From NCBI GenBank assembly GCA_963693365.1, contig CAVNZM010000002.1, positions 12,146,328-12,210,327 on the forward strand: DNA of 64,000 nucleotides. Reading direction: 5' to 3'. Positions 9,595 through 63,744 of the stretch are shown here, piece after piece. Numbering within the stretch: position 1 is the first letter of the stretch; each line of letters opens with the position of its first letter. This DNA comes from Amoebidium appalachense (lineage: Eukaryota > Protista > Ichthyosporea). The notes beneath the pieces are model-generated. The model was not told where the DNA came from. It ran no database searches and saw nothing but the letters and a program-made list of their open reading frames with translations. The position numbers and the translations under genes are program-made.

Positions 9595-11076
9595 AAAACC
9601 ACCACCACTCCTTCCCGCCTTCGCCCAATCCCACCTGTCTTTCCCTTGCCAATTCTCTGCCTGTGTCTGCCCCTCCGTTGCCCCTGTCCTATAGCCAAAG
9701 CCCCCGCTGTGCTCCTTCCTGCGTTCGTACCCTTGCCCCCCCCCCCCCCCCCCTCCCCCAGCGGTTTCTCCCCCCCCCCCCCCCCCCCCTCCGAGCTCCC
9801 CTACCCACGCCTTACCTCATGAGGTAGGGAGTATTTTTGGAATTCGGCTTATGCTGTGGTTGCCTGTTTGGGTCTCTTCGATTTGTTTTTCCGTTTGCTT
9901 TGTCCACAAACGAGGCAGGCAGACGATAACAGAGGAGAGGGGAGTGGGGTGCTGTGAAATAATGTTGATAAGAGGGGGGGGGGGGGGGGGGGGTGTCGTC
10001 ATTGCTTTTACATTGTCCACAAACGAGGCGGGCAGGGGGAGGGAGGGGAGGGGGGAGAGAAAGAGAGAGAGTGTGTCTGTGTGTGTGTGTGAGTGGGTGA
10101 GGGAAAGAGTGTGAGTGTGTCTGAGAGACACTGGAAAAGTAATATTGACCATGGGACGGTGGTTTTTTCAGGTGCTCGAATTCTCGCACACGGACATACC
10201 CAAGATCATGATCCCGGACCAGTACAAGGCGTACTACAAGGTCACGGCAGAAAACCACCTGTGCAGAGGGTACGTGGGCATGGGGCCATCGTGGTGGTTG
10301 GTTGATGGCGTTGGAAAGTGTGTGAGTGGGTGTGTGTGTGTTTGGGGGGGGGGGGGGGGGAGGGAGGAAGGGAGGGGAGGGGGGTTTACGGTGGAAGGGG
10401 AAAGGGGTTGGGGGTGGGTGGGGGGGGGGGGGGGGGGGGAGGGGAGCGGATCAGACAGTGAGGAGTAGGGAGAGTGAGCAGGAGGGCCTTGTGTGGGTGG
10501 GTGGGCGGGGGCGGGGGTTCAAGGACGGTTGCGTACGGTTGGTGGGTTGGAGGAGTGCAAATCGATCAATGTGACGGATTGAGATGTGTTGATGGTTGCG
10601 AGTGGGGGCATGGGTTTGAATGAGCATGGCTGGACAGTGGGGTGGGAAGGAAATACTTCAGCCTGTCCTTCTGTTTCCGTATTCACCTTTTTTAGTTAAG
10701 GCATACATCCCCCCCCCCCCCCTCCCCCCCCTCCCCCCCTCCCCTCCCCCCCCCCCCCCCCCCCCATCCGCCCTCAACCTACCATCCCTTTTCCGTAGAG
10801 ACGTGAGTTTCCCCTTTCATCCGGAGGGAGAATATTCGGGGTCCTTCTGAGGTCCAGCCCCACGGGAAAGGTTAGGGTAACCTCTGGCTGTTTTGTTGGT
10901 TCGTATCGATCGACACAGTGTTAGATGTGGTGTAGCTGTGTGGGCAATGCAGTCTTTAATACTTTTGGGGTGCTCAGGAACACAAAGTATTCCTTTAAGG
11001 AATTTTGCCCGGTGGTCTTTCGGGACCTAAGGAACAGGTTTCAAATAGTCGATGACGAGTATGTGGTGAGTCTGAG

Positions 11077-11108
<32 letters not shown>

Positions 11109-11379
11109 TTTTCTTTCTTTCTTTCTTTCTTTTTTTTTTTTGTGTGTGTGTGGGGGGGGGGGGGGGGGGGGGGGGAGAGGGGGGAGAGCGGAGGGGTTAC
11201 GTGTGGACGTGTGTGTGTACCCAACATACCCAACATACCCAACAGGGTACGTGTGGACACATCATCATCACACACAAACATGGGAACATACACATACATG
11301 CACGTGGCACGGGCATGTCAACCCACACACGTACATGGATACAAGACAGGCACATGCAGCAGGTGCCGATGGTGCACAC

Positions 11380-11411
<32 letters not shown>

Positions 11412-11430
11412 GTCACCCATTCACACACAC

Positions 11431-11462
<32 letters not shown>

Positions 11463-11533
11463 GTCACCCATTCACACACACACACACACACGCACACACA
11501 CACACACGCACACGCACACACACGCGCGCGCAG

Positions 11534-11587
<54 letters not shown>

Positions 11588-12730
11588 ACCACAACCCCCC
11601 CACCCCCCAACCCTGGGGATGGGCTGTGCTTATTATGCATACTTTTTGTGTCGTTTCCACTTTGCACTATGTTATCCTCTGTGAGTGTGTACTTCGTACT
11701 TAATGGTGCATTCAACCCCCCTCCCCTTCACCACACAAACACACACACACACACACACACACAGAACTCTCTCCGTCCGCAATCCGTTGAGCAAATAGAC
11801 GGGCAGGATGTGGGGTGGGGGGTAGGGACCGTCTTCTATCGCAGCAATGACCGAAGGTTTCTTGTCAAGACGATAGACAAGGAGGAGGCAAAGATATTCA
11901 AAAAGGTCTTTTGGAACGGTTACAGAGATGTATGTGCAATTACTCCTCCTCCTCGTCCCCCCTATTTATATTTTTCTTGCTTCTGCTTACTGCTGCAACT
12001 TTAACCCCCGGCCTTTCCCACTGCCCTTGCCTGCATAAGCAACCCTGCTCGTCTCTGATCAAGACGGGTGACCTACTCATGTTCAAGTGAAACAGTATCT
12101 GAGTTGGGTTTCGTTAACGAGGGGAATAGGTCGAAACTCGGGTACTGTGGATGACGTGGGCCCCCCCTGAGGATGGGCTCTGCTTATTATGCATACTCTT
12201 TATGTATGGCTTGCATTCTGCATCGTGTTATCCGTTTGTTCTTGTGTACTTCGTGCTTTTTGACGCATTCAAAACCCCCCCCCCCCCCCCCCCCCCCCTC
12301 CGTGCTGGAGATTCTTGGGAGCTGGCCCTTACTATCGGGTGTGCTTTGCTGTTTCCCCTGTGGATAGTTCTACCTCGTGCCGGTTAACTTGAATCCTCCC
12401 CTCCACCCCCCCCCCCCCCCCCCCCCTCCCCCCCTCTCTCCCCTTTCCCCCCCATTTTCATTTAGTGGTTTGCGATTTTTTCAATGTGTGGTCTGTCGCG
12501 AATGCGTACTTCGTGCTGTGTAATGTGTTCTACCCTCCTCCTCCCCCCTCCCCACACATACACACGCAGGGCAAAAAAAAAAAAAAAAAAAAAAAAAAAA
12601 CCCACACATTCACACATAAGCGACACACGTGTCGGCTCCCTATCCGCCCGCGTTCTCTCCCCCCCCCCCCCCCCCCCTCTCCCCCCCTCCCTCTTCAATT
12701 GCACATCCACACGTGCGCACATACAAACAT

Positions 12731-12777
<47 letters not shown>

Positions 12778-12835
12778 CACGCAGATACACACATAGACAC
12801 ACATCTGCGCACGCACACACACACGCGCGCGTACA

Positions 12836-12878
<43 letters not shown>

Positions 12879-12895
12879 ACACACACACACACGCA

Positions 12896-12957
<62 letters not shown>

Positions 12958-13810
12958 AGCGCGCACCACGCACGCACGCACGCACACACATTACACACAC
13001 ACACATCAACCCCCCCCCCCCCCTCCCCCCTCCCCCCCCCCCCCCCCCCCTTCCCATTCCAAAACACACACACACTCGCCCTTCACCTCACTCCGGTCTC
13101 TTCTGTTCTGCCCGTCCCCACCCACCCACACACTCACCTACACGTAACAGCATATGGTGGAATTCGATCAAGAAACGTTGATGCCAAAGTACACGGGCAT
13201 CTACAAAGTTGCTTAGTAAGATTCCTGTTCCTTTCGGCTTCTTGTGTTTTTTTCCCTCCTCTCTCGCTCCTTTGCTTCATGCGTGCGCATGTGTGTGTGT
13301 GTTCCTGTCGCACATTCCCGTGTGTGTCTGGCGCGCGATTGCAAGAGAGAGAGGGGGGGGGAGAGGGGAGAGAGGAGAGAGGGTGTGTGTGTGTGCGCGC
13401 GCGCGCATGCACGTCCATTTGCGAGTGTGTGTGTGTATGTGTGTGTGTGTGGGGGGGGGGGGGGGGGGGGGGAGGGGGGGGGAGGAAAGGTGGGTGCGTG
13501 TCCTTGCTACCGTGAGTCGGTGCAACTGCACACACGTTTTTGTGTCTTCCATCAACCGTACACACACGCGCAAGTATGTGTGCTTCTGCTTGCCAACTGA
13601 ACTGATAAGATGCTTGTCTGTGTTATGTTTGTACTTGACAGGGGCTCGTCTACTCGTTGTTTTTGAATTTGTTTTTGGTGTGTGGGCATGCGTGTATGTG
13701 TTCACATGTACATGCATGTATAGATGGTGGTATGTTTTGTGTCTTATGGCAGTTCTTGGCACAAGCGTTGTCGTTTTTATACGAGTGTGTAGTGAGAACC
13801 CCCCACCCTG

Positions 13811-13844
<34 letters not shown>

Positions 13845-14410
13845 GCTTTTCTTTTTACCGTCACACAGTCGAGAGTTTCCGAGTCGTTGTACGATCGACA
13901 CTTTGGACATCTGTTGTGGAATCCCACGATGTTTTAACATTTGTCCAACAACCAGAAAAAAAAGGGAATAGGGAGTTTATACCTTTTGCTCCATTTTTAC
14001 TTGGAGCTGCTCTCCATCATATGATTATCCGTATGGTGACCATTGCCTCAAGTTGTGACCAACGAATTTTTTTTTAAACTCATTTTTGCATTTGGATGTG
14101 TAGCTTCCAAGCTCACTTTTGCATTTTCACACCTCGATATCTTCCAAGTTCACTTTCCCATCTAAATCCATGTTACCGACAAACATAATAACATCTTTGT
14201 GTGCAGCCAAGGAAAACCGGCCGTGTATCTTTTGTGCAGGGTTTTGGGCGCAGCTAAAATGGAACCTACAGAACGATACGTGCTAAAGGTGAGTGGCCAC
14301 AATCTGTGTATTTCAGTTTGGAGGTAGAGGTTATTGGTGTTTGGTGCGTCGTGGCATGGGTGGTTGGAAGAAGGGGAAAACTGGGTGAAATTGGGTGTCA
14401 CCTCCCCCCC

Positions 14411-14457
<47 letters not shown>

Positions 14458-15025
14458 AAAAAAAAAAAATCCACCGACCCACCCACCGACCGACCCACCC
14501 AAGAAAAAAGAAGAACAAAAGAACAAAAAGAAAGAAAGGAAAGGAAAGGAAAAGGAAAGGAAACACAGGCCCATGCACAGATGCACACAGACACACACAC
14601 AAGCTGGCTTGGGTGCTCTACTTTCTGTGTACATGTCCCTTGTGTTCGTTTTGAATTCCATGGTAGGAATTGTGTCCATTCACTCACTCCCCCCACCCCC
14701 CTCATCCCATCTCTTTCCCCCTTGCTCCCCCCCCTCCCCCCTCCCCCCCCCCCTCTCTCCCCCTACTTCTTTACCCTGTCATTTGGTTGTTTCCGTTTTT
14801 TGTGGGTATGCAGCCCATGGGTATGGCGAGTGGTCGGGAGATTGAAGGGGTGGAGCCGACGGAGGACAACAGTGCACCTCCACAGCATCGGTTCCACATA
14901 AGTGACGAGGCTAAGGTTAAATTTCTAAAGGTACGTGTTTGTGGGTTTGTGTGTGTTGTCAGGGGGGGGGGGGGGGGGGGGGCTTGTTTTTTTTTGGGGG
15001 GGTGGGTGGGTGGGTGGGTGAGTGG

Positions 15026-15093
<68 letters not shown>

Positions 15094-16178
15094 GCGTGTG
15101 CGTGTGCGTGTGCGTGTGCGGCTGCGCATTCATGCGCTTGTTTGATAATGTGCGTGCTTGTTCGATAATGTGCGTGCGTGTGGATGTTTGTGTGTAGTGT
15201 GTATGTTCAAAGTGTGCTCTCCCATGCGCCCATCCATACACCTTTATTTCCACCTTAACTGCCCTTTACCCTGTGCTGTTTGCGCATCACACACGACCTC
15301 TATTTCAGAGCACCCCAGCCCTTTCCTGGATCCTTCCTTTCTGCGTGTGTTGCATGTGGATCCATACCTCTATTTTCTCTATCGTCTAACAGATCCTCCG
15401 ACGCTTTGTTGTTGCTCTTTGTTGTATCCTCCATATTTCCAACCCTCTAACGCATACATCACCCCCCTTTCCCCCCCCCCTCCCCCCTCCCCCCCTGCTG
15501 CTCCTTCCCCACACCCAACACGCACACGTACACATACACTCGAGCAGAGACAAAATACAACATGCACGCGTGCGTGCTCTCGTACACACACACACACACA
15601 CGTACACACTACGCACACAAACACCACTTACACACACACACACAGACAGTCCCAACCCCCCCCCCCCCCCCCCCCCCCCCTCCCCCCCACACACACACAG
15701 ATGCTGCACAATGACGTAGAGTTTGTACGGGGGGCCAAGCTTCTGACATGCTCCCTTCTGGTTAAAGTCTACTCCGGTCGGATTGACCCACCAGACTACA
15801 ACGGTGCCTGGTTCGTTCACTCGGTGTCAAAAGGTGAGTGCCCCCCCCCCCCCCCCATATTTTTCTTATTTTTCTTATTTTTCTTGCTTCTGCTTACTGC
15901 TGCAACTTTAACCCCCGGCCTTTCCCACTGCCCTTGCCTGCATAAGCAACCCTGCTCGTCTCTGATCAAGACGGGTGACCTACTCATGTTCAAGTGAAAC
16001 AGTATCTGAGTTGGGTTTCGTTAACGAGGGGAATAGGTCGAAACTCGGGTACTGTGGATGACGTGGGCCCCCCCTGAGGATGGGCTCTGCTTATTATGCA
16101 TACTCTTTATGTATGGCTTGCATTCTGCATCGTGTTATCCGTTTGTTCTTGTGTACTTCGTACTTTTTGACGCATTCA

Positions 16179-16219
<41 letters not shown>

Positions 16220-16481
16220 AAAAAAAAAAAAAAAAAAAAAGGGGGAGGGGGGGGGGGGGGGGAACACCCCACACACAAAGAGTAGGGAGAGGGGGGGGGA
16301 GGCAACAAGGGATGTAAAGTTTGAGAGGTTAGGTACGAACACGGAGAGGACAACACCAAAATTACAGATAGATAAGGGCAAGGGAAGCACATCAGCACAA
16401 GCCTTGGTGTGGACAAGGAAGCGGAAAACACGAGAAAAATAATGAAGGAAGGGTAGCCAGAAAAACTGCAAATGCTTACAC

Positions 16482-16522
<41 letters not shown>

Positions 16523-16629
16523 TTCCTCTCCTCCTCCCCCCCGATTCCCCTCTCTCCGGGTCTGCAACACATAAACACATCCAACGGTGCACCCACAAAC
16601 CCATTAACCAACCCTTACATGCGCGCGCC

Positions 16630-16674
<45 letters not shown>

Positions 16675-17280
16675 TCACCTCTCACCTTACCCAAACTGCA
16701 AACACTCCCCACACACACAACACACTACAACAGACGAAACCTATGCTTTCATACTTCTTCCATTCGGTATCACGGGTTCTGGACTTCTAAGCCGCAAGGA
16801 TTCGGGCCCGAAGTTTCTTATAAGACGCGAGTCTGCAACAAGCAAAGTGGAGAAGGAGAGGAGAGAGGAGGAGGAAAAGAGAAGGAAGGAGGAAAAGAGG
16901 AGAGAGAAAGCGGCACGGTCATCAGAGGGGTTGAAAGTGAGAGGAGAGAACAAGGGAGAGGTACGTGGGGTGCATGTTTGAATGTATGATGTTTTCTTTT
17001 TCTTCTTCTTTTTCTTCTTCTTTTTTTTTTGGGGGGGGGGGTTTAGAAGGGCCGGCTTGGTGTTTCTCTCCTGTTTCCCGTTCCACTTGGCTTGATTTGG
17101 GGAGCGTGTGAGAGGGTAGGAAGAGGGTGGGTTGAGAGTGTGTATGTCAGTTATTTGTGATGTAGTCCATGGGGAGATGGGGGGAGGGGGGAGGGGGGAG
17201 GGGGGGAGGGGGGCTATAAGTGGATCTCCCTCCGCCCTCTTTCCCCCCGTCCCTCCCCTCCTCTCTCTTTCTCCCCCTCT

Positions 17281-17314
<34 letters not shown>

Positions 17315-17659
17315 TCCCCCTCCTGCCCCTCTCTCCGTTGCCCGATGTCTTTATACGGGCTGTCGACGTGTGTGCATGTCTGTTTTTCTGAGCCTGTCTA
17401 TTTGTGTCCGCAATGTGCGCCTACCGCTTTTGTGCCCACGAGATTGATTTGTCGAAACTGACTTTATTTGTGTCGGCTGACTGTTTGAGCGTTTTTAGGT
17501 GTTGCCATGCAGGAGTTACAAAACTTTCAACCTCAAGAGGTTTCGATCGTGTTTAGGCGCCTGTGAGTAAATGTAGGTGCAGGCGGGCACAGGGCTGTTT
17601 ATCTTGGTTCCCTCGTTTATGCGCACACTAACATCTAAAATGGTATGCCGTGCGCAAGT

Positions 17660-17748
<89 letters not shown>

Positions 17749-17822
17749 GCCCCTCGTCTAGCAGCACTGACGGTCTGAGTGAGGATCCATTCATCACCTA
17801 CGTGAAGACTCTCTTGGCCTAA
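8993..17822 (+). CDS. PIP4K2: Phosphatidylinositol-5-phosphate 4-kinase (type II PIPK)-like protein, ~385 aa, probable pseudokinase
   Basis: Ten phase-consistent exons: 8993-9100, 10172-10269, 10978-11065, 11765-11929, 13151-13215, 14207-14288, 14814-14930, 15701-15833, 16734-16960, 17748-17822 (TAA). Motifs [25 protein letters not shown]...[28 protein letters not shown] and DVEF...KL..SLLV align with PIP4K2 as recalled. The start codon is uncertain. Confidence 0.88.
11611..11715 (+). repeat. 5'-truncated copy (3' module) of the structured-RNA repeat family
   Basis: CCCTGGGGATGGGCTGTGCTTATTATGCATAC...TACTTCGTAC...GCATTCAACCCCC matches the 3' half of copy A. Confidence 0.75.
11968..12274 (+). 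mobile_element. Structured-RNA repeat family (K-turn/pseudoknot), subfamily A copy 1, intronic in the PIP4K2-like gene
   Basis: Near-identical to 15857-16180 and to the reverse complement of 38994-39302. Flanked by C-tracts. Fold core 12032-12193. Confidence 0.85.
12032..12193 (+). ncRNA. Putative structured RNA / candidate self-cleaving ribozyme with kink-turn and double pseudoknot
   Basis: Closing stem TAAGCA/TGCTTA. Hairpin CTCGTCT/AGACGGG. GACCTA (12070-75) pairs with TAGGTC (12127-32). K-turn TCA-AGT-GA-A / G-GA-TGA. 12-bp stem ACAGTATCTGAG/CTCGGGTACTGT. The pairings covary in subfamilies B (40099-40341, 5'-truncated) and C (51597-51896). Function is inferred. Confidence 0.6.
15400..15465 (+). 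repeat. 3' fragment of subfamily C of the repeat family
   Basis: GCTTTGTTGTTGCTCTTTGTTGTATCCTCCATATTTCCAACCCTCTAACGCATACATCACCCC closely matches the reverse complement of ~51597-51655. Confidence 0.7.
15857..16180 (+). mobile_element. Structured-RNA repeat family, subfamily A copy 2, intronic in the PIP4K2-like gene
   Basis: Virtually identical to 11968-12274. Embedded between two poly-C runs, just after the splice donor at 15834. Confidence 0.85.
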
Positions 17823-17959
17823 ACCCGTCCCTGTACGTGTGTGCAGGCATGCCATTCGTGACACGTGTGTGTGCACAGTAGCGTGTGGGACTTTGCATGC
17901 ACGTGCGCCTTCGTGTTCTTGTGTGTGTGCCCTCGTATGCACCTATATGTGCCTACTGT

Positions 17960-20076: not shown

Positions 20077-20798
20077 AGACTCTTAAAAAAACTTTGATGG
20101 AGAACGTTCGGATGTGAAAGACACAATTGCAACTGACTCGAGGCATGCTACCAGGTTGCTACATGCACCTCTCTCTGGATCTCTTCGGCTGGCCTGAGAA
20201 TATGAAGTTCAGGGCCATAATAAATCCCTCGAAAAGTGTCTCTAATTTTTGATGTCTCATCATTCTCTCCGGGTTGGGGGTTTACGCTAAGTTCACCGAT
20301 TTCTTAGCCAGTGGCTCTCTAAGGGATAAATATATGCAAAAGGCTCCTCTTAAATCGGTATTATTACCATTACACATGCAGTATTATAGTTGGGCCATTT
20401 ATTTAGCCAGTGCATTGTCCGAAATAACCAAACAAACCGGATTGGCTCAGTGCTGGGATGGTTGGATCCCCCAACACTTCTCAACACTTCCAAGTAGGGG
20501 GGCGATCGTATGTCCATACTTTATTTTCTCTTCATACCTGTGCTCCTGGGAATTTTAGACCCCGTTTCCATATGTGTGTAACAGTATGTAACTAGTAACT
20601 ATGGAAAATGCAGCCTCGTTATACCAAAATACCCATATTTAGTGTGAAGCTATTCATTTTTACTATATGTAGAACCACATGCAGTCCTATGTTTGTAACG
20701 GAATTTTACGTGGCCTAGGCCCTAAATGTCGAAACTGATAAATCGTAAATCCGCTGCTACACAGTCACACATATACGACTTGCTCCACCCATAATTAA

Positions 20799-21737
20799 GG
20801 GCCTGTTTGGCAACGCGGGTTAGTGTAATCTGGATTTCGGGGGATATCTGGATATCAAAATCGAGATCCAGATTATGCTGGATCTCAGCCGAAACCTGGG
20901 TTAAGCCGGGTAGATAACCCATGGATGCCAAACAGCCCACGTACGATTTCGGGTTAGATTTGCTCTGCTGTTCATGGAAACGACCGGCCATTCCATTCCA
21001 TTGAGCCTTTTTAAGGCTCTTGCCTCCCGAATCAAGTTTCCTGAGTGAGAGGCTAAGAAAATCGTCTACAACGAACTTGCTTTCTTCTCCCGTAAATCTC
21101 ATACGTGTCTTTTCAACCGCCTCAGTCGACGGTTTGGCTGACTGTGGGGGACTGTCACTCTGTGATTCGATGTTGAGGTTTGCAGGCATCTTGTCGGTTC
21201 AAACAAGATTATCTACAAGTGTACTGTGCTACTGGAAGACTCGGGCTGGACGGCCGCAGAGGGTAGGAAAAGAATGAGAAGTGAGGTGCGTGTCTGTTTT
21301 TATAACGTTCCCCACGTGCAAGTCCGTGCGTTGGTGCAGGTGTCGCAGTTCAAGGCACAGCTGTCGCAGCCCACTCAGTATCCACATGCTGCCAGCAACG
21401 GAAGTTTGGTTTGGCGCCCTTTCAACAATCCTTTTTTGGCCACTTCAAACTATCGACGATTGGTGCAAAAGGACACCATATATAGTTCCATAAAATGAAC
21501 ATTCATTGGGTCGGACATTCAGGACCTGAAAGGATTTCGCGCTAATCCACCTCCCGAGGTGGATTAGTGGAATCCAGAATACGGCCATGTCCGAGGGGTT
21601 TGAAACCCAGATTTACGTGACCGGATCTGGCCGTCTGTTTGGCAGCGGCTGGATTTTGAGATTTGGATTTAGCGCTAAACCCAAAATCGCCCGTAATCCG
21701 GATTTAGGACCCTAAACCCGGGTTGCCAAACAGGCCC
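20799..21737. mobile_element. Non-autonomous PIF/Harbinger (Tourist-like) DNA transposon carrying a Myb/SANT-like ORF remnant
   Basis: TIRs GGGCCTGTTTGGCAAC... / ...GTTGCCAAACAGGCCC, with TAA on both sides (20796-98, 21738-40) as a 3-bp TSD. Subterminal TGGATTT/AATCCA motifs. The minus-strand ORF from 21189 (RMRFTGEESKFVVDDF...SLKKAQWNGMAGRFHE) resembles the Harbinger Myb-like protein. Confidence 0.85.
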
Positions 21738-22110
21738 TAAGAGTTTTGGGGGATCCGATGGTTTTATTTATTTTTATTATGTGGAATTCACGGAGCGTTC
21801 GGGGCCACCAAGATTTTTTTGAACTTCAGGAAGTTGAATAAACCCAGCGTAGCTTATATAGTTATACACACAATATACGCAGGAAAGTTATGGGGAGAAA
21901 ATTTGAGGGCCTGAAAGCTCAAAGAATCTGTAGTACTACATCTACCGTGCTTGTTCATTGCATACACTACACCGTCGGACGTTTGGGGCCCTGGCCCCCC
22001 TGGGCCTGCTTTAGCCCGCCTCTCCAAAAAAATAGCATTCACACTGACATGACGTGTCGCATTCCTAAGTACATTCTTTTCATTCCAACCGCTTGTCCAA
22101 AGCCAAATAG

Positions 22111-23306
22111 CCGAACGCGAGTGGCCCGGATTCGTCGACAACTCCCCGCTGAACAACTCGTTCCGGCCCTTCGGAATAGCATTTAGCCTGGTGCAGCGCG
22201 GCACGTTCTTTCCATATCAGGACAATCCATTTCCTTTTTTGGAAGCGGTCAACAACAGTGATGCAACTGCCACGTACCTTTACCAGTGCACGAATGTTTA
22301 CGATGTGGACATCACGGTGGGTCCCCCCCCCCCCCCCCCCCCCCCCCTTCCTCTGTGACGTCTGCTCGCACAAGTAATTCTGCTGGTCTCTGCTTGGGCG
22401 CTCCCTGAGGATGGGCTTTGCTTATGGCGCATAGCTGATGTTGCATACTTGCGCATTGCTGATATTGCATACTTGAATGTTTGGCTTTGCATGTGTCCTG
22501 CACCATGCTTCTCGTCGTGTATATGTACTTCGTACCGTGTTCCGCATTCAACCCCCCCCCCCCCCCCCCCCCCCCCCCGCCCTGTTTTGTGACATCAAAC
22601 ATCCGCACGGAGTCCTGCGTTTTTCACCCAGGTTTCAGTATTGATTAACGTCATTGTGGTATTGTGTTAGTTATAGTGACTGCTTAGTTATGGGACTTAA
22701 GTATTATAGATAACAAAGACCGTTTCTTTTCATCCAGTGCCTATATAGTGCAAATCTCCCCCTTCTGATATTGGGGTTACGCCATGTTTAGGAGTTATTA
22801 AGAAATGCCGTCATAACTGTTAAATGCTGTGGTTGACTTAAGGCCTGCCGCTGTCGTGATTTGCTGTCCTAGGGTAAAAAAAGTGGCCGGGCAGGGGAGC
22901 AGGGCGAGAGGGGCGGGGGGGGGGGGGGGGGGGGGGGGGAGGGGGGGAGGGGGGGGGGGGGGGGGAGGAGGAGCGGAATCCGAGGGGAGGGGGTGGGGGG
23001 TGGGGAGAGGGGTCCCTGGATGTGAGTAATATGGGCAATTTAGGCTTGCAAGCACTTGCGGCTCTACATGAACTAAGCGTATATGGTAACATTCTCTCTC
23101 CAGGGATTGGCCGGTAGCTTCTTCTTGCGTCTGTCCACAGGCACATGCGGCACCCTTATGCCATGTACTCAAACCCCGAGCGCTCTCTTCAGTTTCCCCC
23201 AGGGCACAGGTGAAACCTTATCCCCTCCCCCTCTCCCCCCCCCCCCCCTTCCCCCCCCCCCCCCCTGCCTTCCCCTCCCCCCCCCCCCCCCCCCACCCCA
23301 CCACCA

Positions 23307-29294: not shown

Positions 29295-30700
29295 TCACGA
29301 GTTATCCAGTAACAAGTGCATACTGAGATACCTGAACACTGTGTGAAAATCATATAAATACTCAATGTGACGACCAACAGAATTCAACAAAAAGTCTAAA
29401 GTGTTCACATTGCCAGCTAGTGTAGCAGATACCCGGAGGGAAAGAGGTAAAACGCGACATAAAAATTCACACCTATCAACATGCTTGCGATTAAAAAGGT
29501 CAGCACAAAAGTGGCACCAGCGGCGATGAAAACAAGAATTACAGCGCCACTGCACAACTTCCCAGGCAATATCAACATCAGAGCACCATACAGACTTATC
29601 TACTAGGGTGGTATCCATACGTACAGCAGGAGAAATGTATCCTGCCAAAGCTCCCAAAAAGCGATAATGATCAGTACGGTGTTGCCTAAGGAACATAACA
29701 CATGCCGACTGAGTTTTACCTTTGATTTCTCTATCAGAACGAGAAAGAAACTTATACTGCGTATGGTAATAACGCGAAAAGGCAGAAAAAACAGGAAGAG
29801 AAAAGAAAGAGGGAGTGAGATAGCGAGAGGAAGAATCAGGTGGAAAGAGGGTAGGCTGAGGACATTCAGAAGTAGCGTTGGTGAATCGGGGGGGAAGAGG
29901 GATGGAGGGAGGGGGGGGAAAGAAAGCATAAAGAGGGTGACCATCAGGTAGCCTAACTAAATGAAAACAAAAACGAAGAGACAATTCCTCCATACGACAA
30001 ACAGCAGACGACAATCCAAACATACTGATTAAGGGAGGCACAAACCGAGTACGAAACAAAGTGCGTAGCGCAGTACCCTGAAAAATCGTCGAACTCGTTC
30101 AGCGCCATTGCCGCCTCGCGAGGTGGGGCGCAGGCCAATAGCGGGAAGTCCATATTCGAAAGTCGGCCGTAAAAAAGTTTTATAGTAGAGAAGAAGGTTC
30201 GCAGGATGGATCACAGACTCCTGTTGAAACATATTTGACACGATGTGAAGCTTACCCTTCGCACGAGCGATCCGTGCTGTGAGGAGCTTGCGGAAATCAA
30301 TACCCCGTGCAGTAAAAGGAATACCCAAATAGTCATAGGTGCTCTGAACAGGAATAGGAAGGCCGGCCAATCGAAAGGAAGTGTTCTTCGAAAAAGTAGC
30401 ACACTTTGCAATTCCGACTGTCATGAAATTCTCGGTGCACCATTGATCCACCGACAAAGCATCTGGTGCATGACATCTTCGGTTAAGGAACAAAGAACAA
30501 TATCGTCCGCAAAAAGGAGACCCGGTACACGACGGGTATGCAGTTGGCCAAAGGGTTCGAGGGCGCAGGCTAAATCGTCAATGAAAACGTCAAACAACAA
30601 CGGACTCAGGAGGGACCCCTGCAGAAGACCCCGGGTGTTAATGTTCCATTGACCGCCGCGCGTCCGCGAGTGGTATCGAACAACGCTTGCAGAAGACGGC
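29295..30700 (-). mobile_element. 5'-truncated, frameshifted non-LTR retrotransposon (LINE) ORF2 fragment: reverse transcriptase plus C-terminal CCHC knuckle
   Basis: RT motifs GLLQGSLLSPLLFDVFIDDL, LLFADDIVL, YDYLGIPF and YKTFLRPTFEYGL. C-terminal CHFC..FNRKHVDRC. Split over several frames. Confidence 0.92.
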
Positions 30701-30868
30701 CAAAGGGGGCTGGCTACTTTGTATCCACGTTTCTTGCTTGCTATGGCTGAAAAAATGACGTCTAGGTGCAAACCAGATCACGTAATTCGTGCATATTTGT
30801 TGCGTGGAAGTATGGGACAGTACTACAAGCATGTACACGTAACCAGATCTAGCGCACAACCAAATACA

Positions 30869-31175: not shown

Positions 31176-32097
31176 TCACCCATCGGTACCATACCAATTA
31201 TCAGCCACTGGTGCACTGCATGCCTTCTTGTGCACCTTCCAGTGGGCCTTTTGGCAGTCTCTGTCGCAGTACCACGCAACCTTGCACGTGCACACTTTCA
31301 GCTTTCGTGATTCCGTACCAAGGCCTCCTAAATACCACACACACACGCGGCCTATGTGGTCGCGGAGACCACTGTGCGCGTGATGGAGTGCCTCACCAGC
31401 AAGGAGCTGGAGGGCAAGTTTCTGCACGCCGGCTCCCACCGCCTGCTGGTTCACACGCTCGCGGTTCAGCACGCCAAGAGCCGGCCGGAGACAGAGACAA
31501 TTCGAGGCATTACTTGTGAGGTGTGCGGGGAGGACACGGCGCAGTACCTCGACGGCATCGCCATGAGAATGACCAACATTTTGCTCAACAACTACACCAA
31601 GGAACGCAACGCGAAAAAGAAAACACCAACCAACAAGCCAAACCAGCAAACCAAGAAATACGAGGGTGCATCAACCGGTTTATTGGCGGCGCACGCCGCG
31701 GACGACGGCCCCAGCGCCAGCGACGACGTGGAGGCTGTGCTCGAGGAGGAGGACTTCGACGTTTGTCGTTTTTGAACGACGACGCACTGGGTGCGTTGTG
31801 TGAGACTTAGGCAGTTATAGGCAGTGATGATTGCGTCTGGTAGTTTAGCGTAATGTTTGCACAAGTTTTGCACTAAAACTAGTCTGATGTAGGAGACCCC
31901 GGAGGGGCACGTAAGATTTCAGTGTTCGATCACCCTACTCTTTACACGTAATCTGGAGTATTAGTCTATTGCGTGCCTCGGCCCGGTGTGGTATTTAGGA
32001 GGCCTTGTTCCGTACCCACCGTACCGCAGCTGCTGCACGTGCGTACAGCCCGGGGGCTGATTTCAGTGGGTGGTGGCTCAGATGCGGGCATGTGGTT
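31176..32097 (-). pseudogene. Second MYND zinc-finger terminal exon, disrupted by a DNA transposon
   Basis: Removing 31319-32007 and one TSD restores [52 protein letters not shown]. The finger is nearly identical to the exon at 36117-36320. Confidence 0.85.
31319..32007 (+). mobile_element. 689-bp non-autonomous TIR DNA transposon (P-element/THAP9-like or hAT) with a transposase C-terminal remnant
   Basis: Perfect 22-bp TIRs CAAGGCCTCCTAAATACCACAC and 8-bp TSD TTCCGTAC (31311-18, 32008-15). Internal ORF 31356-31775 (CEVC..YLDGIAMRMTNILLNNYTKERN) is reminiscent of P-like transposase C-termini. Confidence 0.88.
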
Positions 32098-34570: not shown

Positions 34571-35550
34571 TTCTTGCCAAGTCATGGCAACAGCTGCTCA
34601 AGCCTTTTCTTTTTTGAATCGCCCTAACATTAAAGATCACTAGCCAAATACAGCTCCCGTTCAACGCCTTCCCTTCCTCATTTCCCCACACTTTCCCCCC
34701 AAACACTATTCAACTCCACCTCTCTGGCTCTCTTCATCAGCCCACCTCTACCCTTCACCCATCTCTCTCAAGTGCTTGGGGCACATCAATCCCCGCAACT
34801 CCGCATCCATCGAGAACATCGCTTTTTCTTTTTTCCCCAACGTCTGGCATTTGAGCTTTATCATAAAAGATGCTGGGTGACAATAGGCACAGAAGTTCTC
34901 TACACCGTCCTTTTCCAACCCTACCTCCCCATCTCTCCCCGCACCAAGCCCCCCGCGGGCGGCGTGTTTTCCCCATGCTCGCCTCATTTCTTTCTTTTCA
35001 CACCCTATCACAAATCGGCCTCCGAAATAAAGGCAGCGCCAGCCAGCTACCCTCAAAATGAAAAAATGGGGGCAAACGCAAAAAGAAAAAAATGGGGAAA
35101 GTTTTCTTTCAACGGGATGAAAGCACAGCCCTCTGAACACAGTGTGTTCATGAACGGGTCAGAGGGCCTAGTCTCCAAGGCTATGTACCCACTGGGTTAC
35201 GTAAGTGGCTGAGCACTACTACGTGTCGCCTGCGGCAACATACAAGGTATGTTGAGCCGGGCCGCAGCTGCAGGAGACAGCACTCAAAAGTCACTACAGA
35301 GGGCCGTGATGAAAGGGAACAAAGAAATTACGTAACAAGGCAAGGGACCAGCGTATGCTATTTTTAGATTACTCCAACTCAGATTCTGGCCAAGTTGAAT
35401 ATCCGGCTGTCCGGTCGTGGTCGATAGGTGGGTTCGGGGGCAGGACTCAGCGTTCCCACTACTGTAGAAAAAAAAAAAGAAGAAGAGACCAGTCGCACGA
35501 TCATGGCAAGAACCTACGTTTTTGTGCATTTTGCTTGCTGTTATGTATGC
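33930..35550 (-). mobile_element. Decayed retroelement-like fragment, paralogous to 41700-44100
   Basis: 34766-34990 aligns with 43582-43800 (FCAYCHP..KC..GKKEKA..MCPKH). ETIVMLLHGKGETGAEF (~34170-34225) parallels TIIAEFYGALFDTGAQL. The GCACGATC...CTACGTTTTTGTG end is shared. Confidence 0.5.
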
Positions 35551-36116: not shown

Positions 36117-36605
36117 CTAAACCCCGCCCTCCCGCGCACTGCACACCTTCTTGTGCACCTTCCAGTGGGCCTTTTGGCAGTCTCTGTCGCAGTACCACGC
36201 GCCCTTGCACGTGCACACTTTCAGCTTTCGTGATTCCGTACCCACCGTATCGCAGCTGCTGCACGTGCGTACACCCTGGGGTAGGCCCCGTGTAGGTGCC
36301 TCAGGCACGGGTGTGTGGTCCTGCAATTGTGTGTGCATGTGTGTGCATGTGTGTGTGTGTGTGTGTGTGTACGTGTGTACGTGTGTTTTTTTTTTTTTTT
36401 TTTTTTTTTTTTTGGGGGGGGGGGGGGGGAGAAGAGGGAATGCGCAAGTGAGTGAGTGCTGTGCGTATGTATGTGTGCGTGTGTGTTTGTGTGTTTGTGT
36501 GTGTGCGTGTGCGTGTGTGTTTCTTATGTGCATGTCTGTGGGTGTCGGTGGTTGGGTGACTGGATGTGTGTGTGTCTGTGTGTCCGTGTGAGCCTATGTA
36601 GGTTC

Positions 36606-38384: not shown

Positions 38385-39302
38385 TGTGTGCATGAGGTGT
38401 TGCGTGTGAATATGGCGTGGGTGTTGTTTTAAAAAAATAAGAAGGTCGTTAGAGGGTGCAAACAAAAGCACCACACCTGGATATGGTTCTAAGAATCCTA
38501 CGAGCGACTATATGTTCCGCGAAGGAATTTGTGTCACTCCATAAATGGTAACCATGAATTGCAATCTATCAAATATGTTCCACAGGTGTCACTTGTTCTA
38601 CTCTGGTCCCAAAAGTGATCAACCCGAAATGCCACCGAACGTCCGGATATATATTGTCCAACCGCATATTCTACCAAAATCCATTAGACTTGAATGGACT
38701 CACATAATTTGCTTATAACCCTCTGCTCACTAAAGCTACTCCACCCCCCCTCCTCCCCCCCCTCCCCAGGGGCCCCATTTACACACCCACACACTCACAC
38801 ACCTCTCCCGCCTACATTGTGCGTGTTTCGCCGTGGGTGTATCTTATGTGCACGTGTGCATATAAATGTCATATCTACTCCAGTGTGTGCGACTGTGTGT
38901 CTATCTGCCAATATTCCACGCCATGCACACTACAACGTCGCGCGGAAGGTGGGGTAGGGGGGGAGGAAGGGGAGGGATGGGGAAGCGGGGGGGTTTGAAT
39001 GCGTCAAAAAGTACGAAGTACACAAGAACAAACGGATAACACCCGATGCAAAATGCAAGCCATACATAAAGAGTATGCATAATAAGCAGAGCCCATCCTC
39101 AGGGGGGGGCCCACGTCATCCACAGTACCCGAGTTTCGACCTATTCACCTCGTTAACGAAACCCAACTCAGATACTGTTTCACTTAAACATGGGTAGGTC
39201 ACCCGTCTTGATCAGAGACGAGCAGGGTTGCTTATGCAGGCAAGGGCAGTTGGAAAGGCCGGGGGTTAAAGTTGCAGCAGTAAGCAGAAGCAAGAAAAAT
39301 AT

Positions 39303-39410: not shown

Positions 39411-41595
39411 GAGGGGGGGGAGGGGGGGGGGGGGGGGGGGGGTCGGTTTCCAACCTGCCACAGAGAAAACACGTATGTGTCTACGGCCAGTAGATTCAAA
39501 CACAACTCCACCACGACTGTGAACGCATCTCTCCCATGCCCTCTGTAGTATCTATGCAAATCCCTCGGCTCGGGTGGGTGGCGGCAAAATGCGCCAAGCA
39601 GCGTCAAAAGGCGGCATGCTGAGGTTGCTGGGAGCACCTTGGCCATGCGGGCCGGTGAAATTTGCCGGTTGCCATCCGTGGAAGAACAAGTAGGGTCTGA
39701 TGGAATGGGGGAAGGGAGCGGGAGGGCGGAGGGTGGTGGTGGTGGGGGGGGGGGGGGGGGGAGGGAGAGGAGGAGGGGGGGGGGGGGGGGGAGGGGGGAG
39801 GGCGGAGGGGGGTTAAAAGGTTAGAATTTGTCAGGAAGTATGGACTACACATTCATGACCAACAACACAAGGCAGATTCCCAGGGGCAAGTAAAGAGCAT
39901 GCATCACAAGCAGGGCCCAATCTTGGGGGGGGGGGGGGGGGGGGGGGGGGGGACCACTCAAAGCAGAAAATAACCCCCCCCCCCTCCCCCCCCCCACCTC
40001 CTCTCGCTTACAACGGATAACACATTGCAGATTGCAAAAGGCAAACAGAAAGAGTTCGCATAAGTAGAGCCCAACCCGAGGGGGGGGGGGGGGGGGGGTT
40101 TGAATGCGGAACACAGTACGAAGTACGCATAGACGATGAGAAGCATGATGCAGGACACATGCAAAGGCAAACATTCAAGTATGCAGCATCAGCCATGCGC
40201 ACAGTATGCGTCATAAGCAGAGCCCATCCTCAGGGAGGGCCCAAGTCATCAATTGCGTCTGAGTTTCGACCCCTTAGCCCGCGTATATACGACGCTCCAA
40301 CTCAGACAGCAGCATCAACTGAACTTGGGTGGGTCAACCCGGGGGGGGGGGGGGGGATCAAACCATCCTTGAACCCCCTCCCCCTTTTTTTTTTCAACGG
40401 ATAGAACAACACAGATTGCAAAAAGGACATGCAAGAGTACGCACCAGAAGAAGAGCCTATACCTGGGGGAGTTTTGGGGGGGGGGGGGGGGGGGGGGGGG
40501 GGACCAGACCACCCAAAGAAGAGCCCCCCCCCTCCCCCCCGCAACAACAACAACGGACAACACAACACACATATAGACAGTATGCATGAGAAGTGGAGTC
40601 CATCCCAGGAGGGGAAGGGCGGGTGAGGGGGAGACCAGACCATCCAAAAAAGAGACCGCCCCCCCCCCCCCCCCTCCCTCCCTTCCCCCCCCCCCCCCCC
40701 CCCCCAAAAGGTCAAAACCTACCCCCAGCATGTATTCGGTAGCCGTCACCTGCTCTCCCATGTTTAAGTTTCCCCGCGCAAACACTGTTTCAGCCGCCCG
40801 CAGAAAACCCTCCGTATTGACCCAGCTTTTGGGAACGCGCGTTACAGTATATTCCGCAAAATCGCACAATCGGACTAGCGTTCTCCTCGCAAAGTACTCG
40901 TGGAAGTACACATCTTGCAATGGATGTGACGGAGATCGGGTGATCAGATCGGCCAGGCCTGCAATCGCAGGGTCGAAAAACACCCGCGGGATGGTATTGA
41001 CCACCTTGTCCGTCCACCCCATCCTCTCAGCCACCGGGAAAATCGCGTTCAAGATATCGGCGATCTGACCAATTAGCTGAATCGGATACCTGTGCTTGAG
41101 GCCCCGTGCCTTCTCAAACATGGAAACCCCCCCGTTGGCCAAATACCAATTCAAGAGTTTTTCGAGATCGTATGTTCGTGGCCCCTTTGCAATCTCAACA
41201 AATATGCCGCCCGCAAGCAAATGTGGGCACATTGTGTTATTATTCGTGCAATCGTTGGAATGGTTGGCATTTATCCCGAGCTGCACCAACAACAACAAGT
41301 CGTCAAAATTTTGCGGGTAAATTTCCGATTCCGCCATTAGAACCCACCATGTGGCCATCAAGCGGCCGTATATCGACGTCATTTGGGAGGCCTGGCGGGG
41401 GTTTTTCCTGAATTCCTCGTTCATATATTCCGTGTATCTCCGAGTGGCCCTGGCCATGGAAGTTGCCATTCGAATGGGGTCTTTGTGTCCGCTTTTGGGT
41501 AGTAACCCCCCCACCGTGCAGACTAGCATAATCTCAACAAGAGGTGGGATCGTCTCCTTTTCGAAGACCTTGTCACTGCAATCGATCAATCCTGC
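36117..41595 (-). CDS. Helical-repeat-like protein with C-terminal MYND zinc finger; 5' exon(s) not found
   Basis: Exons 41595-40723 (291 codons, open), 39696-39455, 38138-37884 and 36320-36117 ([33 protein letters not shown]). One phase mismatch at the G-run donor at 40723 (homopolymer error or missed exon). Confidence 0.8.
38994..39302 (-). mobile_element. Structured-RNA repeat family, subfamily A copy 3, intronic in the MYND gene
   Basis: Reverse complement of 11968-12274 with few substitutions. Those in the K-turn stem (CTCA>CCCA, TCA>TTA) preserve pairing. Confidence 0.85.
39820..40650 (-). repeat. Head-to-tail stack of ~5 diverged copies of the repeat family, including a subfamily B copy at 40099-40341
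   Basis: On the minus strand each short unit begins at a C-run plus a (T)GAGGATGGGCTC-like motif and ends at the next poly-C. 40099-40341 extends further 5' and retains the K-turn/pseudoknot core. Confidence 0.75.
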
Positions 41596-41617
41596 CTGTG
41601 GTGTGAAAAGATGAGTG

Positions 41618-41699: not shown

Positions 41700-44100
41700 G
41701 AAGAGCAGGTGGCGAAACCTATCCATCCCATCAAGCATGGCTGATCTAGATTCACACAACAAGACACTGATAATACTATGAACAGAAACCCCTTGGGTGC
41801 TGCAGGGGCAAAGGGAAAGGTATGAACAAGCAAAGGACTTGCCAACAACTAATATGTGTTCTCCGACAAGCTGGTATGTGCATGTAGCTCGCAAGCTCTG
41901 CCCTCTCTCTTTCCCCCTCCCCTTCCCCCACAGATCCAATCTATCTCCCTCTCCCCCACCCCCCCCCCCCCTCCCTCCCTTTCTCAGTTGCCCGCCTTCC
42001 CTAAACACAACCTGTTGACACACTCGTGTCGCACAAGAGCACGAACACCTATCTTAACCGTAAACCCATCTTTGTAAGCTCTTTCTTTCTGTGTTTTCCT
42101 CTACTCGATCTCCCGTTGTGATCCAGAAACGTGGAGGGAGGAACTAACCGCGATCAAGGCAGGACCAAACCTCGGGTCAGGAAGTTGTGCACCGGTATCG
42201 AACAAAGCACCGTAGAACTCCGCGATGATCGTCTTCTCGACTGTCGGATCGGACGATCCAACCCAGTTCGCGCCGTTCAAATACTCCACCTTGAGCTCAC
42301 ACATCTGGTTTGTGATTAGGTTTTTAGGTTTTTGGGATACACTCAGATTGGTATAATTCAAGGCCCAGATGGAGCTTGTTTATATTATGCTACCCCCCCC
42401 CCCCCCCCCCCCCCTTCCCTTTCCCCTCCCCCAACACACCCACATCTGCGATGTCCGAGTTGCGAATTCTTCCCCAAATTCCCTCACATACACACCGCCC
42501 CTCCCCCCCCCCCCTCCCCCCACCCAAAAAAAAACAAAACAAAAAAAAACAAAAAACAAAAAAAAAACATGAACACAGACACACATAAGAAAGAAAAGCA
42601 CCCGTTGTCACAGGAGCATCAGCTCCCCTCCCCGGTTGCCCTGATAACTCCACAACTTACCGTTACTCAATATTCTGTTCCCTCCCCTCTCTAATCTTTG
42701 CTCAAACCTACTAAGCTAAAGTCCACATCCTCTGTCGAGTTTTGACAGTCGTTTGATTCTTGTACCTCGTACTGGCTCTATCTCCAGATGTCATTCTTGA
42801 AGAAAGTATTTTCTTTCCTTCATATCTTACCAATGCCAACCCGCCAAGAACAACTGTGGACATACTAGAACACACGTCGACCCCCCCCTCCCCCCACCCA
42901 CACACCCACCCACCCCTCCCTTCCCCCCATTGTTTTCATAGTGCTGTGCTTAGAAGGCAAACACTCTCCTTCTCTCCTTTCTGAAGGCAAACCCCCCCCC
43001 CAAAACACACACACAACCCCCCTTCCCCCCTCCCCCCCCCCCCCCCCCGGCCGCCCCCTCCTCCCCCTTGCCCTTTCTACTCCCGCACCCTTCTCCTTAT
43101 GTCTCTTCCCTCAACCCCCCCACCCCACCACCACCACCCCCGCCCTCTCCCCCCCCCCCCCCCCCCCCCTCTATATATATATATAACGCTCTCCTCGCTC
43201 TTCTCTCTCTCTCTCTTCCTGTTTCTCTTTCTCTCCCTCTCTCTCCCCTCTTCACCCTCCCCCCCTTCCTCTCTCCCTCTCTCTCTTTCTTTCTCGCACT
43301 CGCTTTCGCTTCCCCCCTTACCCCCATTCACCCCCTCCTCCACCAAGAAAGCTAACTTGACAAATTTGCACTTGGTCACCGCTTTTTCAACCACCCCTGG
43401 GGGCACATCAAGAGCAAAAACTCATTCTTTTCCGCCAACCATCCCTTCGTTTCTCAACCTTTCCCTCCCGGCAGTCACTTTTCTCACTCCTACTTCTTTC
43501 CTCCGATCCCAACCTCCTCCTCCCCCCCCCCCCCCCCCTCCCTTCCCCGCCCGCCCGCCCGCCCGCCCCTCTCACCCACCTCTTCAAAGTGCTTGGGACA
43601 CATCGATCCCCACCCCTCCGCACCCAACATCATTCCAGCTTTCTCCTTTTTCCCAAACCTCTGGCACTTGAGAGCTTGTTTGGCAGCGTCTGGATGACAA
43701 TAGGAGCAAAGTTCCCCTACGCCACCCATTCCCGCCCCACCCCTCCTCACACCAAGCCCCCCGCGTGCGGCGTGTTCTGCCCCTGCTCGCCTCATTTCAC
43801 ACCCGTAGCAACGGTGACAGTGAAGTCATGCAACAGACAAACTCGAAAAAGTTTGCGCGTGCTCAGGCTACAGATGACATCTGAAGCTATTTTTAGATTA
43901 AGCTTCAATTTCTGGCCTTTCAATCGTAGGCAGCCTTTTGTTTCAAGCCTTGGAGACAAGTTGGAGTGTAACTATGTATGTACGTGTATGGCGCGAGTTA
44001 GCATGTTGTAGGCGTGCGCACGCTCCGTGGGGACCTTGATTCTCAAAACAGCTGCATGGCACGATCCTGCTTCTACGTTTTTGTGTGTTGTGCTGGCTGG
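41700..44100 (-). mobile_element. Decayed retroelement-like region with a retropepsin-type aspartyl protease motif and a Cys/His-rich N-terminal segment
   Basis: ORF 42101-42361 contains FYGALFDTGAQ (DTG). ORF 43490-43795 has CSYCHP..KC..MCPKH. Broken by stops and microsatellites. No RT or integrase seen. Confidence 0.55.
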
Positions 44101-49143: not shown

Positions 49144-49384
49144 GCCCGTACGTGTACACCGTCACCTACACACACGCAAAAATACACAAGCGCACGCGCG
49201 CGCACGCGCACACACACACACACACACACACACGTACAAACACACAGTTCACAGACGTCCACGGTATGCAATTTAAATGCTTTGCAAATGCCTTCAATGT
49301 TCAATACAATTAAAAATATACATTCCAATACAGATGCAGACTGCCCTCGGTCCCCTCACCATACATATAGCAGATAGTCACAAT

Positions 49385-49815
49385 ACAAAAGACAATCCCC
49401 CCCACCACAAAAGACAATTAATCACTCCAACCACAAAAGTCAACCATCCCCACCTCAGAATACAATCACCACCCTCACAAAGATCATCACAAGAGATAGT
49501 TATATATCCACCACAAAATGCAATCAGCCCCACTACCAGTTTTGAGGGCTATCACCCCCACCCCGAAAGACATTCACTCAGTGGCACCCCAAAAACTATC
49601 ACTCCCACCACGATAGGCAACCACCCCACCACCTGAGACACTCGAGAAAAGGCAATCATCCCCCCCACGAAAGACCAACATCCCCAGCACGAAAGACAAT
49701 CCCCCCCACCACAAATAGCAACCACTCCTACCACGAAAGACAATCATCCCCACCACAAATGAAAATGAAAGACAATGACCCCCACCAAAAAAAGTCAACC
49801 ATCCCCACCACAAGA
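49385..49815. repeat. Degenerate minisatellite (~20-25-bp units, consensus near GAAAGACAATCATCCCCACCAC)
   Basis: Repeated AAAGACAATC...CCCCACCAC units are visible directly. Confidence 0.7.
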
Positions 49816-50776: not shown

Positions 50777-62796
<12,020 letters not shown>

Positions 62797-63535: not shown

Positions 63536-63744
63536 TACTGAATCTCAACGTGTGAAACAGCATTTGTATGCCTGTTCATCATGAATAGGAAGAAGGCAGA
63601 TTGGGGGGCCGGGAGGGGGAGATGTTTTTCGAAGTTCCATTCTGCTTCTCTCTTCGAACATGTACATGCTTTCCCCTCCTTCCCCCCCCCCCCCCCCCCC
63701 CCCCACCTCTAGGGCCCAACCACATCAGCTGATTCAACTTGCTC

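Follow-up and report, generated by a model that had tools for sequence, protein, structure and literature searches.

We are inclined to think that a repeat family scattered through the 64,000 nucleotides of Amoebidium appalachense DNA analysed here (the window) contains a complete hammerhead ribozyme core that is split and non-circularly permuted, that it likely forms the 3' end of a Naiad/Chlamys-type Penelope-like retroelement or a non-autonomous derivative of one, and that its RNA is predicted to cut after the GUU triplet ending at 12105. The parts of this reading deserve different degrees of belief: that the core is a hammerhead is very likely, that the carrier is Penelope-like is likely, and that the RNA still cuts itself is a prediction we hold to on the whole. 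The RNA fold is real and conserved, very likely a new form among the permuted hammerheads, and probably comes from a Penelope-like element.

The window is eukaryotic and intron-rich, with many C/G runs and dinucleotide repeats. A first-pass annotation had described five copies of the repeat in three subfamilies (A, B and C), and each copy lies where it was placed; 11 fragments beyond that description bring the copies and fragments in the window to 16. With A1 as the sole query, nhmmer retrieved both B1 (E 4e-16) and C1 (E 1e-11).

11959/68-12273, plus strand: copy A1, intronic, 29 nt past a GT splice donor, with a C-run at its end
15876-16180, plus strand: copy A2, 99.7% identical to A1 and in the same host gene; predicted cut after 16012
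38994-39302, minus strand: copy A3; predicted cut after 39165
40099-40343, minus strand: copy B1, 5'-truncated shortly before stem II; predicted cut after 40299
51597-51896, minus strand: copy C1, in the last intron of a WD40 gene, with two decayed core positions
11610-11716, plus strand: 3' fragment beginning at the C-run that precedes the core
12468-12525, plus strand: old 3' fragment (E 0.023)
15400-15461, plus strand: family C 3' fragment, 90% identical to C1 over 62 nt
22356-22552, plus strand: B-type copy with an apparent internal deletion from hairpin Ha to the outer helix
32140-32175, minus strand: short 3' terminal fragment, found by motif match alone
39821-39934, 40003-40087, 40393-40488 and 40546-40633, minus strand: four old 3' fragments, head-to-tail around B1
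58643-58898, minus strand: two old 3' fragments in tandem, in an intron of the WD40 gene
12243-12273, plus strand: 3' terminal motif common to A- and B-type copies, with a C-run next to it

Every helix that the annotation had named is there in the sequence, although two of them, real as they are, go by other names: its long-range pseudoknot is stem II of a hammerhead, and its long inner stem is stem III. Its remark that family B lacks the 5' part of the fold holds for the window copy B1 and not for the family at large, given that a contig of run X4 joins A-like upstream sequence to B-type sequence. In A1 the parts lie as follows.

12036-12041, plus strand: 5' strand of the closing stem, paired with 12181-12186; two two-sided changes between A and C
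12048-12068, plus strand: hairpin Ha, 7 bp, its loop holding a 6-nt palindrome (TGATCA in A, TGGCCA in C)
12070-12074, plus strand: 5' strand of stem II (10.1-10.5), the annotation's pseudoknot strand, not contiguous with CUGANGA
12076-12085, plus strand: 5' strand of the outer helix (the C-stem of the K-turn), paired with 12152-12160; counterpart of the stem I-II interaction helix
12086-12091, plus strand: bulged strand of the K-turn, a 3-nt bulge and then G, A, A; partner 12149-12151
12092-12105, plus strand: 5' strand of stem III and the GUU triplet, 13 bp with 12136-12148; cut predicted after 12105 by hammerhead analogy
12106-12108, plus strand: stem I strand 1.1-1.3, GGG, paired with CCC at 12164-12166; pair 1.3-2.3 is G-C in A and C, A-U in B
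12109-12127, plus strand: variable hairpin Hb and linker, with a self-complementary centre
12128-12136, plus strand: 3' strand of stem II (11.5-11.1), then G12 A13 A14 A15.1
12164-12173, plus strand: stem I strand 2.3-2.1, then the core C3 U G A G G A9; family C contigs have CUGAUGA
12174-12186, plus strand: invariant UGGGCUC and 3' strand of the closing stem; 12176-12180 is an alternative stem II strand

The argument for a conserved RNA begins with pairing that persists while the letters change, as the annotation had proposed. Across six helices, comparing A1 with B1 and A1 with C1, 16 of the 17 differing pairs still pair, 11 of them by two-sided changes; random substitution kept 16 pairs in 0 of 200,000 trials, and in 206 of 200,000 when transitions were favored 2:1. 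With registers set by hand over three subfamilies, this count is support and not an R-scape test. Stems I, II and III each show two-sided changes among the three subfamilies (a single such change in stem I). In contigs of run X3 both ends of one stem II pair vary at similar depth (12074 T>C at 3.7%, 12128 A>G at 3.1%), frequencies that do not imply linkage on one molecule. Folding energy did not set the sense strands above their shuffles (z -0.24, -1.01 and +0.62).

The K-turn that the annotation had read in all three subfamilies is seen in A, B and C, with its 3-nt bulge followed by tandem G.A and A.G pairs, as the standard definition has it; position 3b:3n is A:G in A and C and U:U in B. By the rules given in the accessible part of PMC8191799, the K-turn of A (3b:3n A:G, -1 pair A:U) should fold in Mg. 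The annotation had linked this motif to proteins of the L7Ae/Snu13 family, and of that suggestion the K-turn itself stands, while nothing else supports an L7Ae/Snu13 particle.

Why call it a hammerhead? The invariant letters of A1 are G16.2 U16.1 U17 at 12103-12105, C11.1 G12 A13 A14 A15.1 at 12132-12136 and CUGAGGA at 12167-12173, and in A1-A3 and B1 the entire core stands in register (G10.1-C11.1, GAAA, A15.1-U16.1, C15.2-G16.2, U at H17, CUGAGGA). The NUH triplet between stems III and I is GUU in all five copies. CGAAA followed 25-35 nt on by CUGANGA occurs four times in the window, always within a copy, and 0.21 times per shuffled window. The core of C1 is broken twice, by a mismatch at 15.2 and by a CUGANGA one letter short, and both positions can be followed in family C contigs from four runs, which represent at most three samples (X3 and X10 are one; X1 is possibly the source of the window). 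There C15.2 is present at 98-100% of depth in all four runs, and the extra letter that gives CUGAUGA is present at 36, 52, 86 and 33% of depth; more family C contigs break at the CUGAUGA site, and their loose ends bear the same extra letter.

It is at this point that one might ask whether the letters still do anything. The fold could instead be a non-cutting protein scaffold, an L7Ae-family K-turn or a reverse transcriptase recognition fold in the 3' untranslated region of a SINE or LINE, in which the hammerhead letters are a relic. We find this quite improbable. A scaffold would account for a K-turn in A, B and C and for a cut site that leaves no footprint: the predicted site is the start of none of the 16 copies and fragments in the window, and no loose end falls there among the matches listed for upstream-A and family C contigs. 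It would suit the intact copies that host introns carry in sense orientation, where activity of the monomer would sever the pre-mRNA (a fact that counts against cutting), it would sidestep the difficulty of folding in cis discussed below, and it would recall that, of nine natural retrozyme dimers, eight failed to cleave, according to the accessible part of a preprint (bioRxiv 10.64898/2026.07.22.740005). Against it, the catalytic nucleotides are all kept across three families whose helices have been rewritten, the positions decayed in C1 are intact across family C, and a scaffold would have no need of GUU in that register. As for the sense orientation, all copies that can be assigned to a host gene are intronic and in sense, and we regard this as a weak bias because 85 of the 120 long C/G runs in those genes already have C on the sense strand; the odds for nine independent sense loci are then about 0.045.

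A ribozyme core, then, very likely; in what order are its pieces arranged? From 5' to 3' the RNA presents the 5' strand of stem II, the outer helix, the K-turn, the cleavage block, the GAAA block, the K-turn again, the outer helix again and CUGANGA. The blocks thus run site, GAAA, CUGANGA (S, G, C), which is the order that defines type SGC, and the circularly permuted block order of canonical types I, II and III is not found in the repeat. Because the covarying strand of stem II is at 12070-12074, ahead of all these parts and some 100 nt before CUGANGA, we read the CUGANGA core as split, with the closing stem and hairpin Ha inserted where A9 ordinarily joins G10.1. With this upstream strand stem II has five Watson-Crick pairs in each of A, B and C and three two-sided changes.

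The main rival to a split core takes the RNA for a type-SGC hammerhead of the ordinary kind with a 2-nt insert, in which stem II is made from the invariant GGCUC that follows CUGANGA-UG, and in which the upstream strand makes an OFF helix, the first to form as the RNA is transcribed, which shields the host pre-mRNA. This reading is improbable in our judgment, although several things speak for it. The contiguous strand pairs over 4, 5 and 5 bp in A, B and C, equal to the upstream one in C; positions 11.4 and 11.5 alternate only among purines, which suits both stem II partners; no change is seen in the flanking words CCC, GGG and CUC, which would fit words that have two partners each; the single short link that must reach the core is one the rod model described below allows (29-45 Å needed, 46 Å of reach); and Eckert et al., in the accessible part of PMC10085705, permit inserts of one or two nucleotides. 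What speaks for the upstream strand is that the two-sided changes in stem II are all made with it and the downstream strand never follows. The contiguous helix is, moreover, weak in A, the youngest family here, where it carries a C-A mismatch: its energies in A, B and C are -3.8, -7.4 and -8.3 kcal/mol, against -8.2, -10.0 and -8.2 kcal/mol for the upstream strand. In the two octopus Naiads, read by eye from the accessible sequences, the contiguous helix is just 2 bp. The two stem II pairings may also be two states of a switch.

Granted a split core, how would it close? By bending stem III back, the K-turn would let the outer helix tie together the tops of stems I and II and substitute for the usual loop-loop contact. 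A crude rod model with the K-turn closed leaves a gap of 36-61 Å between the outer helix and stem II, to be bridged by a link that reaches about 33 Å, and on that model a single molecule with a closed K-turn would be unable to close the core; an opened kink or a second molecule would be needed. With the internal loop opened, the geometry gives 56 Å needed and 67 Å of reach, so that the link could just make it. The same model with octopus Naiad lengths gives 17-36 Å, which could be closed. A further point against our reading is the shortness of stem I, which has 3-4 bp.

A second molecule might be had if the repeat were a domain-swapped, obligate-dimer hammerhead, with half an active site at each end of the K-turn-bent arm, a second copy paired through two self-complementary loops, and two ribozymes formed in trans. 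We hold this to be unlikely, although it is allowed by the gap in the rod model and by the self-complementary loops of both hairpins. Hairpin Hb holds a palindrome of 10 nt in both A and B, family C contigs have CGCGCG there, and the centres of Ha and Hb remain self-complementary although their letters change. On the other side of the ledger, a 6-nt palindrome occurs in about 10% of random 10-nt stretches, hairpin symmetry raises palindrome counts, the Hb palindrome is absent from window copy C1, and one molecule with its internal loop opened could just bridge the gap. Were the dimer true, lone intronic copies would be harmless and just those transcripts with two terminal repeats would be cut, a natural copy-number switch, and the split-core hammerhead of animal Naiads would extend to unicellular holozoans.

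What sort of element would carry such a core? A- and B-type copies share one 3' motif and family C copies have their own, and all of them stop at a C-run; 5' ends differ among copies, and six of the 16 copies and fragments begin at the internal C-run before the core. From the fixed 3' end, the varying 5' ends and the abutting C-runs we infer a retroelement that is copied into C/G runs beginning at its 3' end. Priming would be done on the G-rich strand of those runs by a reverse transcriptase and endonuclease supplied by a partner, the RNA would be copied from its fixed 3' end to yield 5'-truncated copies, and, if other Penelope-like elements are a guide, cuts at two terminal repeats would trim the transcript to unit length. 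The first-pass proposal of a mobile, strand-specific structured RNA of retrozyme-like kind, outside any Rfam family, is thus borne out; a whole-window Rfam scan gave no gathering-score match among the matches listed (150 of 276), and the best matches to A1, C1 and B1 searched alone were mir-981 (E 0.33), a partial Hammerhead_1 (E 1.9), none, and a snoRNA (E 8.6).

Naiad and Chlamys elements, as described in the accessible part of Craig et al. 2021 (PMC8557442), show 5' truncation, partial tandems, microsatellite targets and non-autonomous derivatives, and the first three of these are all seen in the repeat, as traits that are not exclusive to Naiad and Chlamys. According to the same source (C)n is a common Chlamys target, and our copies abut C-runs and stand in head-to-tail arrays as described for Chlamys there. 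The four fragments around B1 (39821-40633, minus strand) have spacers that are similar to one another and G- and C-runs on their flanks, and for these reasons the array looks like a tandem duplication. Further marks of the Naiad/Chlamys group are a 30-40 bp tail extension and inverted 5' copies; long copies, in which these might be seen, are few in the window. Where the repeat differs from Naiad and Chlamys is in having no protein gene found in the window: a motif scan, with Pfam on 24 of 185 ORFs, gave neither a Penelope-type protein nor an ORF with an N-terminal GIY-YIG, a CxC motif and a Penelope-type reverse transcriptase. Ichthyosporeans have no hits in PMC8557442, and we found no paper on Penelope elements of Amoebidium.

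Could the ribozyme be real and the carrier a LINE, or a SINE dependent on one? The chance is slender. LINE-type copying would likewise account for a 3' end that stays fixed, for 5' truncation and for the short hairpin at the terminus, and there is a decayed, frameshifted LINE-like reverse transcriptase at about 30030-30780 (minus strand), not linked to the repeat, for which five RVT_1 proteins were found at 55-68% identity over 40-53% of the query. That fragment adjoins no copy, however, and the copies lack a poly(A) tail; their C-run targets and their head-to-tail arrangement fit Chlamys, and the same RNA layout was read in Naiad ends. A SINE, which the first-pass annotation had suggested as one likeness, finds no support as far as a tRNA, 5S or 7SL head goes, in that ARAGORN reported 0 genes and Rfam no match, although the upstream extension beyond our view could hold one. 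A shared extension upstream of A appears in contigs of three runs, with 30 nt visible, and from it we conclude that a longer master exists; no match to it is seen at the C-terminus of any of the five reverse transcriptase hits.

Run X3 has 7,760 contigs on 11740-12300 and 1,218 on C1, and though summed contig depth is not copy number, the contigs point to a very large, very abundant family. Loose ends of run X20 contain at least one further subfamily, with another stem II 3' strand before GAAAC. Contigs of runs X4 and X9, which we guess to be RNA and which are uninformative on the ends or level of the repeat RNA, match the exon upstream of A1 as far as 11929 and then diverge from the window. 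Pattern scans found no relatives in viral contigs (2 and 83 loci), metagenomes (21) or prokaryote genomes (59); both core words, as regular expressions, occurred in 147 of those 165 loci, and none passed the helix test, as against four window copies. A sequence-only model found no match in loci L001-L023. The comparisons that follow thus have as their base the repeat of one organism and Naiad ends read by eye.

Minimal type I hammerheads of Penelope-like elements are said to have been described by Lunse et al. 2017 and by Cervera and de la Pena 2014. Non-LTR retrozymes, in the accessible part of the preprint cited above, are like our repeat in being short, non-coding hammerhead repeats tied to Penelope-like elements, with dimer cutting known; they and the minimal type I forms treated there have canonical tandem folds, whereas here the fold is permuted and the copies are mostly dispersed and common in introns. 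A second comparison is with the type-SGC hammerheads (HRIMA-1 and variants), which cleave in vitro (Eckert et al. 2023, PMC10085705, from its accessible part, as are the next comparisons). Shared with them are the order site, GAAA, CUGANGA, the whole core with stems I-III, a helix linking the far ends of stems I and II, and a short link between stem I and stem II strands. The repeat departs from them in the break in the CUGANGA block, which is taken as unbroken there and here has its covarying strand about 100 nt upstream; in the hairpin within its stem I-II link; and in the K-turn that joins both stem III strands to the outer helix. In a few cases in that paper the interaction helix abuts stem III, with a geometry called unclear, and neither "kink" nor "k-turn" occurs in its text or supplement. 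Those hammerheads came from metatranscriptome contigs; ours is a chromosomal repeat.

Canonical hammerheads are reported absent from Naiad and most Chlamys elements in the accessible part of PMC8557442, which flags "half core" hammerhead words at 35-50 nt. We read by eye the 14 Naiad and three Chlamys 3' ends accessible in its supplement, some of them named from file order. Those of Naiad_Obim and Naiad_Ovul (octopus) have the split layout of the repeat and a K-turn-like loop, differing by a stem III of about 5 bp, against 13 bp in the repeat, and by opposite K-turn polarity. Naiad_Hcon, Naiad_Hpol and Naiad_Smim have the CSG order, a type of which two sequences are known in the accessible part of Eckert et al. 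(PMC10085705), and Smim has a U between A9 and G10.1; joining the ends of the Smim form and opening it at its U would give the block order of the repeat. Among the other Naiad ends, again by eye, two are partly S-G-C like, one is ambiguous and six of the 14 show no motif, nor did we see one in the three Chlamys ends, two of which target (C)n.

In SAM-I and c-di-GMP-II the closing of a long-range helix is made possible by an arm bent at a K-turn. RAGATH-18, which has a K-turn according to the accessible part of PMC8191799, follows the same principle, as the repeat would; all three are bacterial and have no hammerhead core, and the repeat has no Rfam match. In the literature we searched (titles and abstracts, few subscription papers, no preprint supplements), the fold of the repeat is undescribed.

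If our reading is true, the hammerhead core can bear to be broken between A9 and stem II, which the accessible part of the paper defining six permutations (PMC10085705) takes to be impossible, and a K-turn can belong to the structure of a natural ribozyme. A permuted hammerhead missed by standard descriptors would explain why Naiad and Chlamys appear to lack canonical ones. The repeat has its cut predicted to the nucleotide, and it comes in three natural sequence variants and lends itself to clear mutants. Should copies cut in vivo, an intronic repeat of great abundance would influence how a close relative of animals processes its RNA.

Other identities were tried and set aside. For an HDV-like fold, inspection shows no upstream P1 partner and no P3, with U at the C position in A and C; the topology is unsuitable for a group I or lariat-capping core; a Fanzor/TnpB guide RNA such as RAGATH-18 finds no Rfam match, no nuclease gene and truncation of a retroelement-like kind; and box C/D snoRNAs reached only E 4.4 and 8.6.

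The genes that hold the copies deserve a brief description. The WD40 gene (50780-61625, minus strand) matches a EukProt protein in 12 blocks at 77-100% and hosts C1 and two old fragments; a second EukProt protein matches it at 39-83%, and carries what we take to be the gene prefix of Ichthyophonus hoferi, so that an ichthyosporean host is likely from the sequence itself. A multi-exon gene at 10165-17850 (plus strand) holds A1, A2 and three fragments, and its exons, by motif, resemble those of a PIP kinase. Beside B1 lies an exon of about 300 aa (40700-41600, minus strand), for which Pfam gave no match and a search of proteins 165-525 aa long gave no homolog at E 0.001.

Elsewhere in the window a piece repeated at 31213-31319, 32008-32055 and 36136-36281 with 94-96% identity is possibly another mobile element, and on the minus strand it reads as what we take to be a MYND-type zinc finger. 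A second dispersed repeat (34751-34990 and 43567-43798) is 73% alike, with a C-run before each copy; an inverted pair about 900 nt apart (20798-20845 and 21686-21738, 81% alike) may bound a small DNA transposon; 49352-49812 is an array of diverged units of about 30 nt, rich in A and C; and at 63727-64000 short units stand in tandem in two opposed orientations, making a large inverted repeat at the end of the window.
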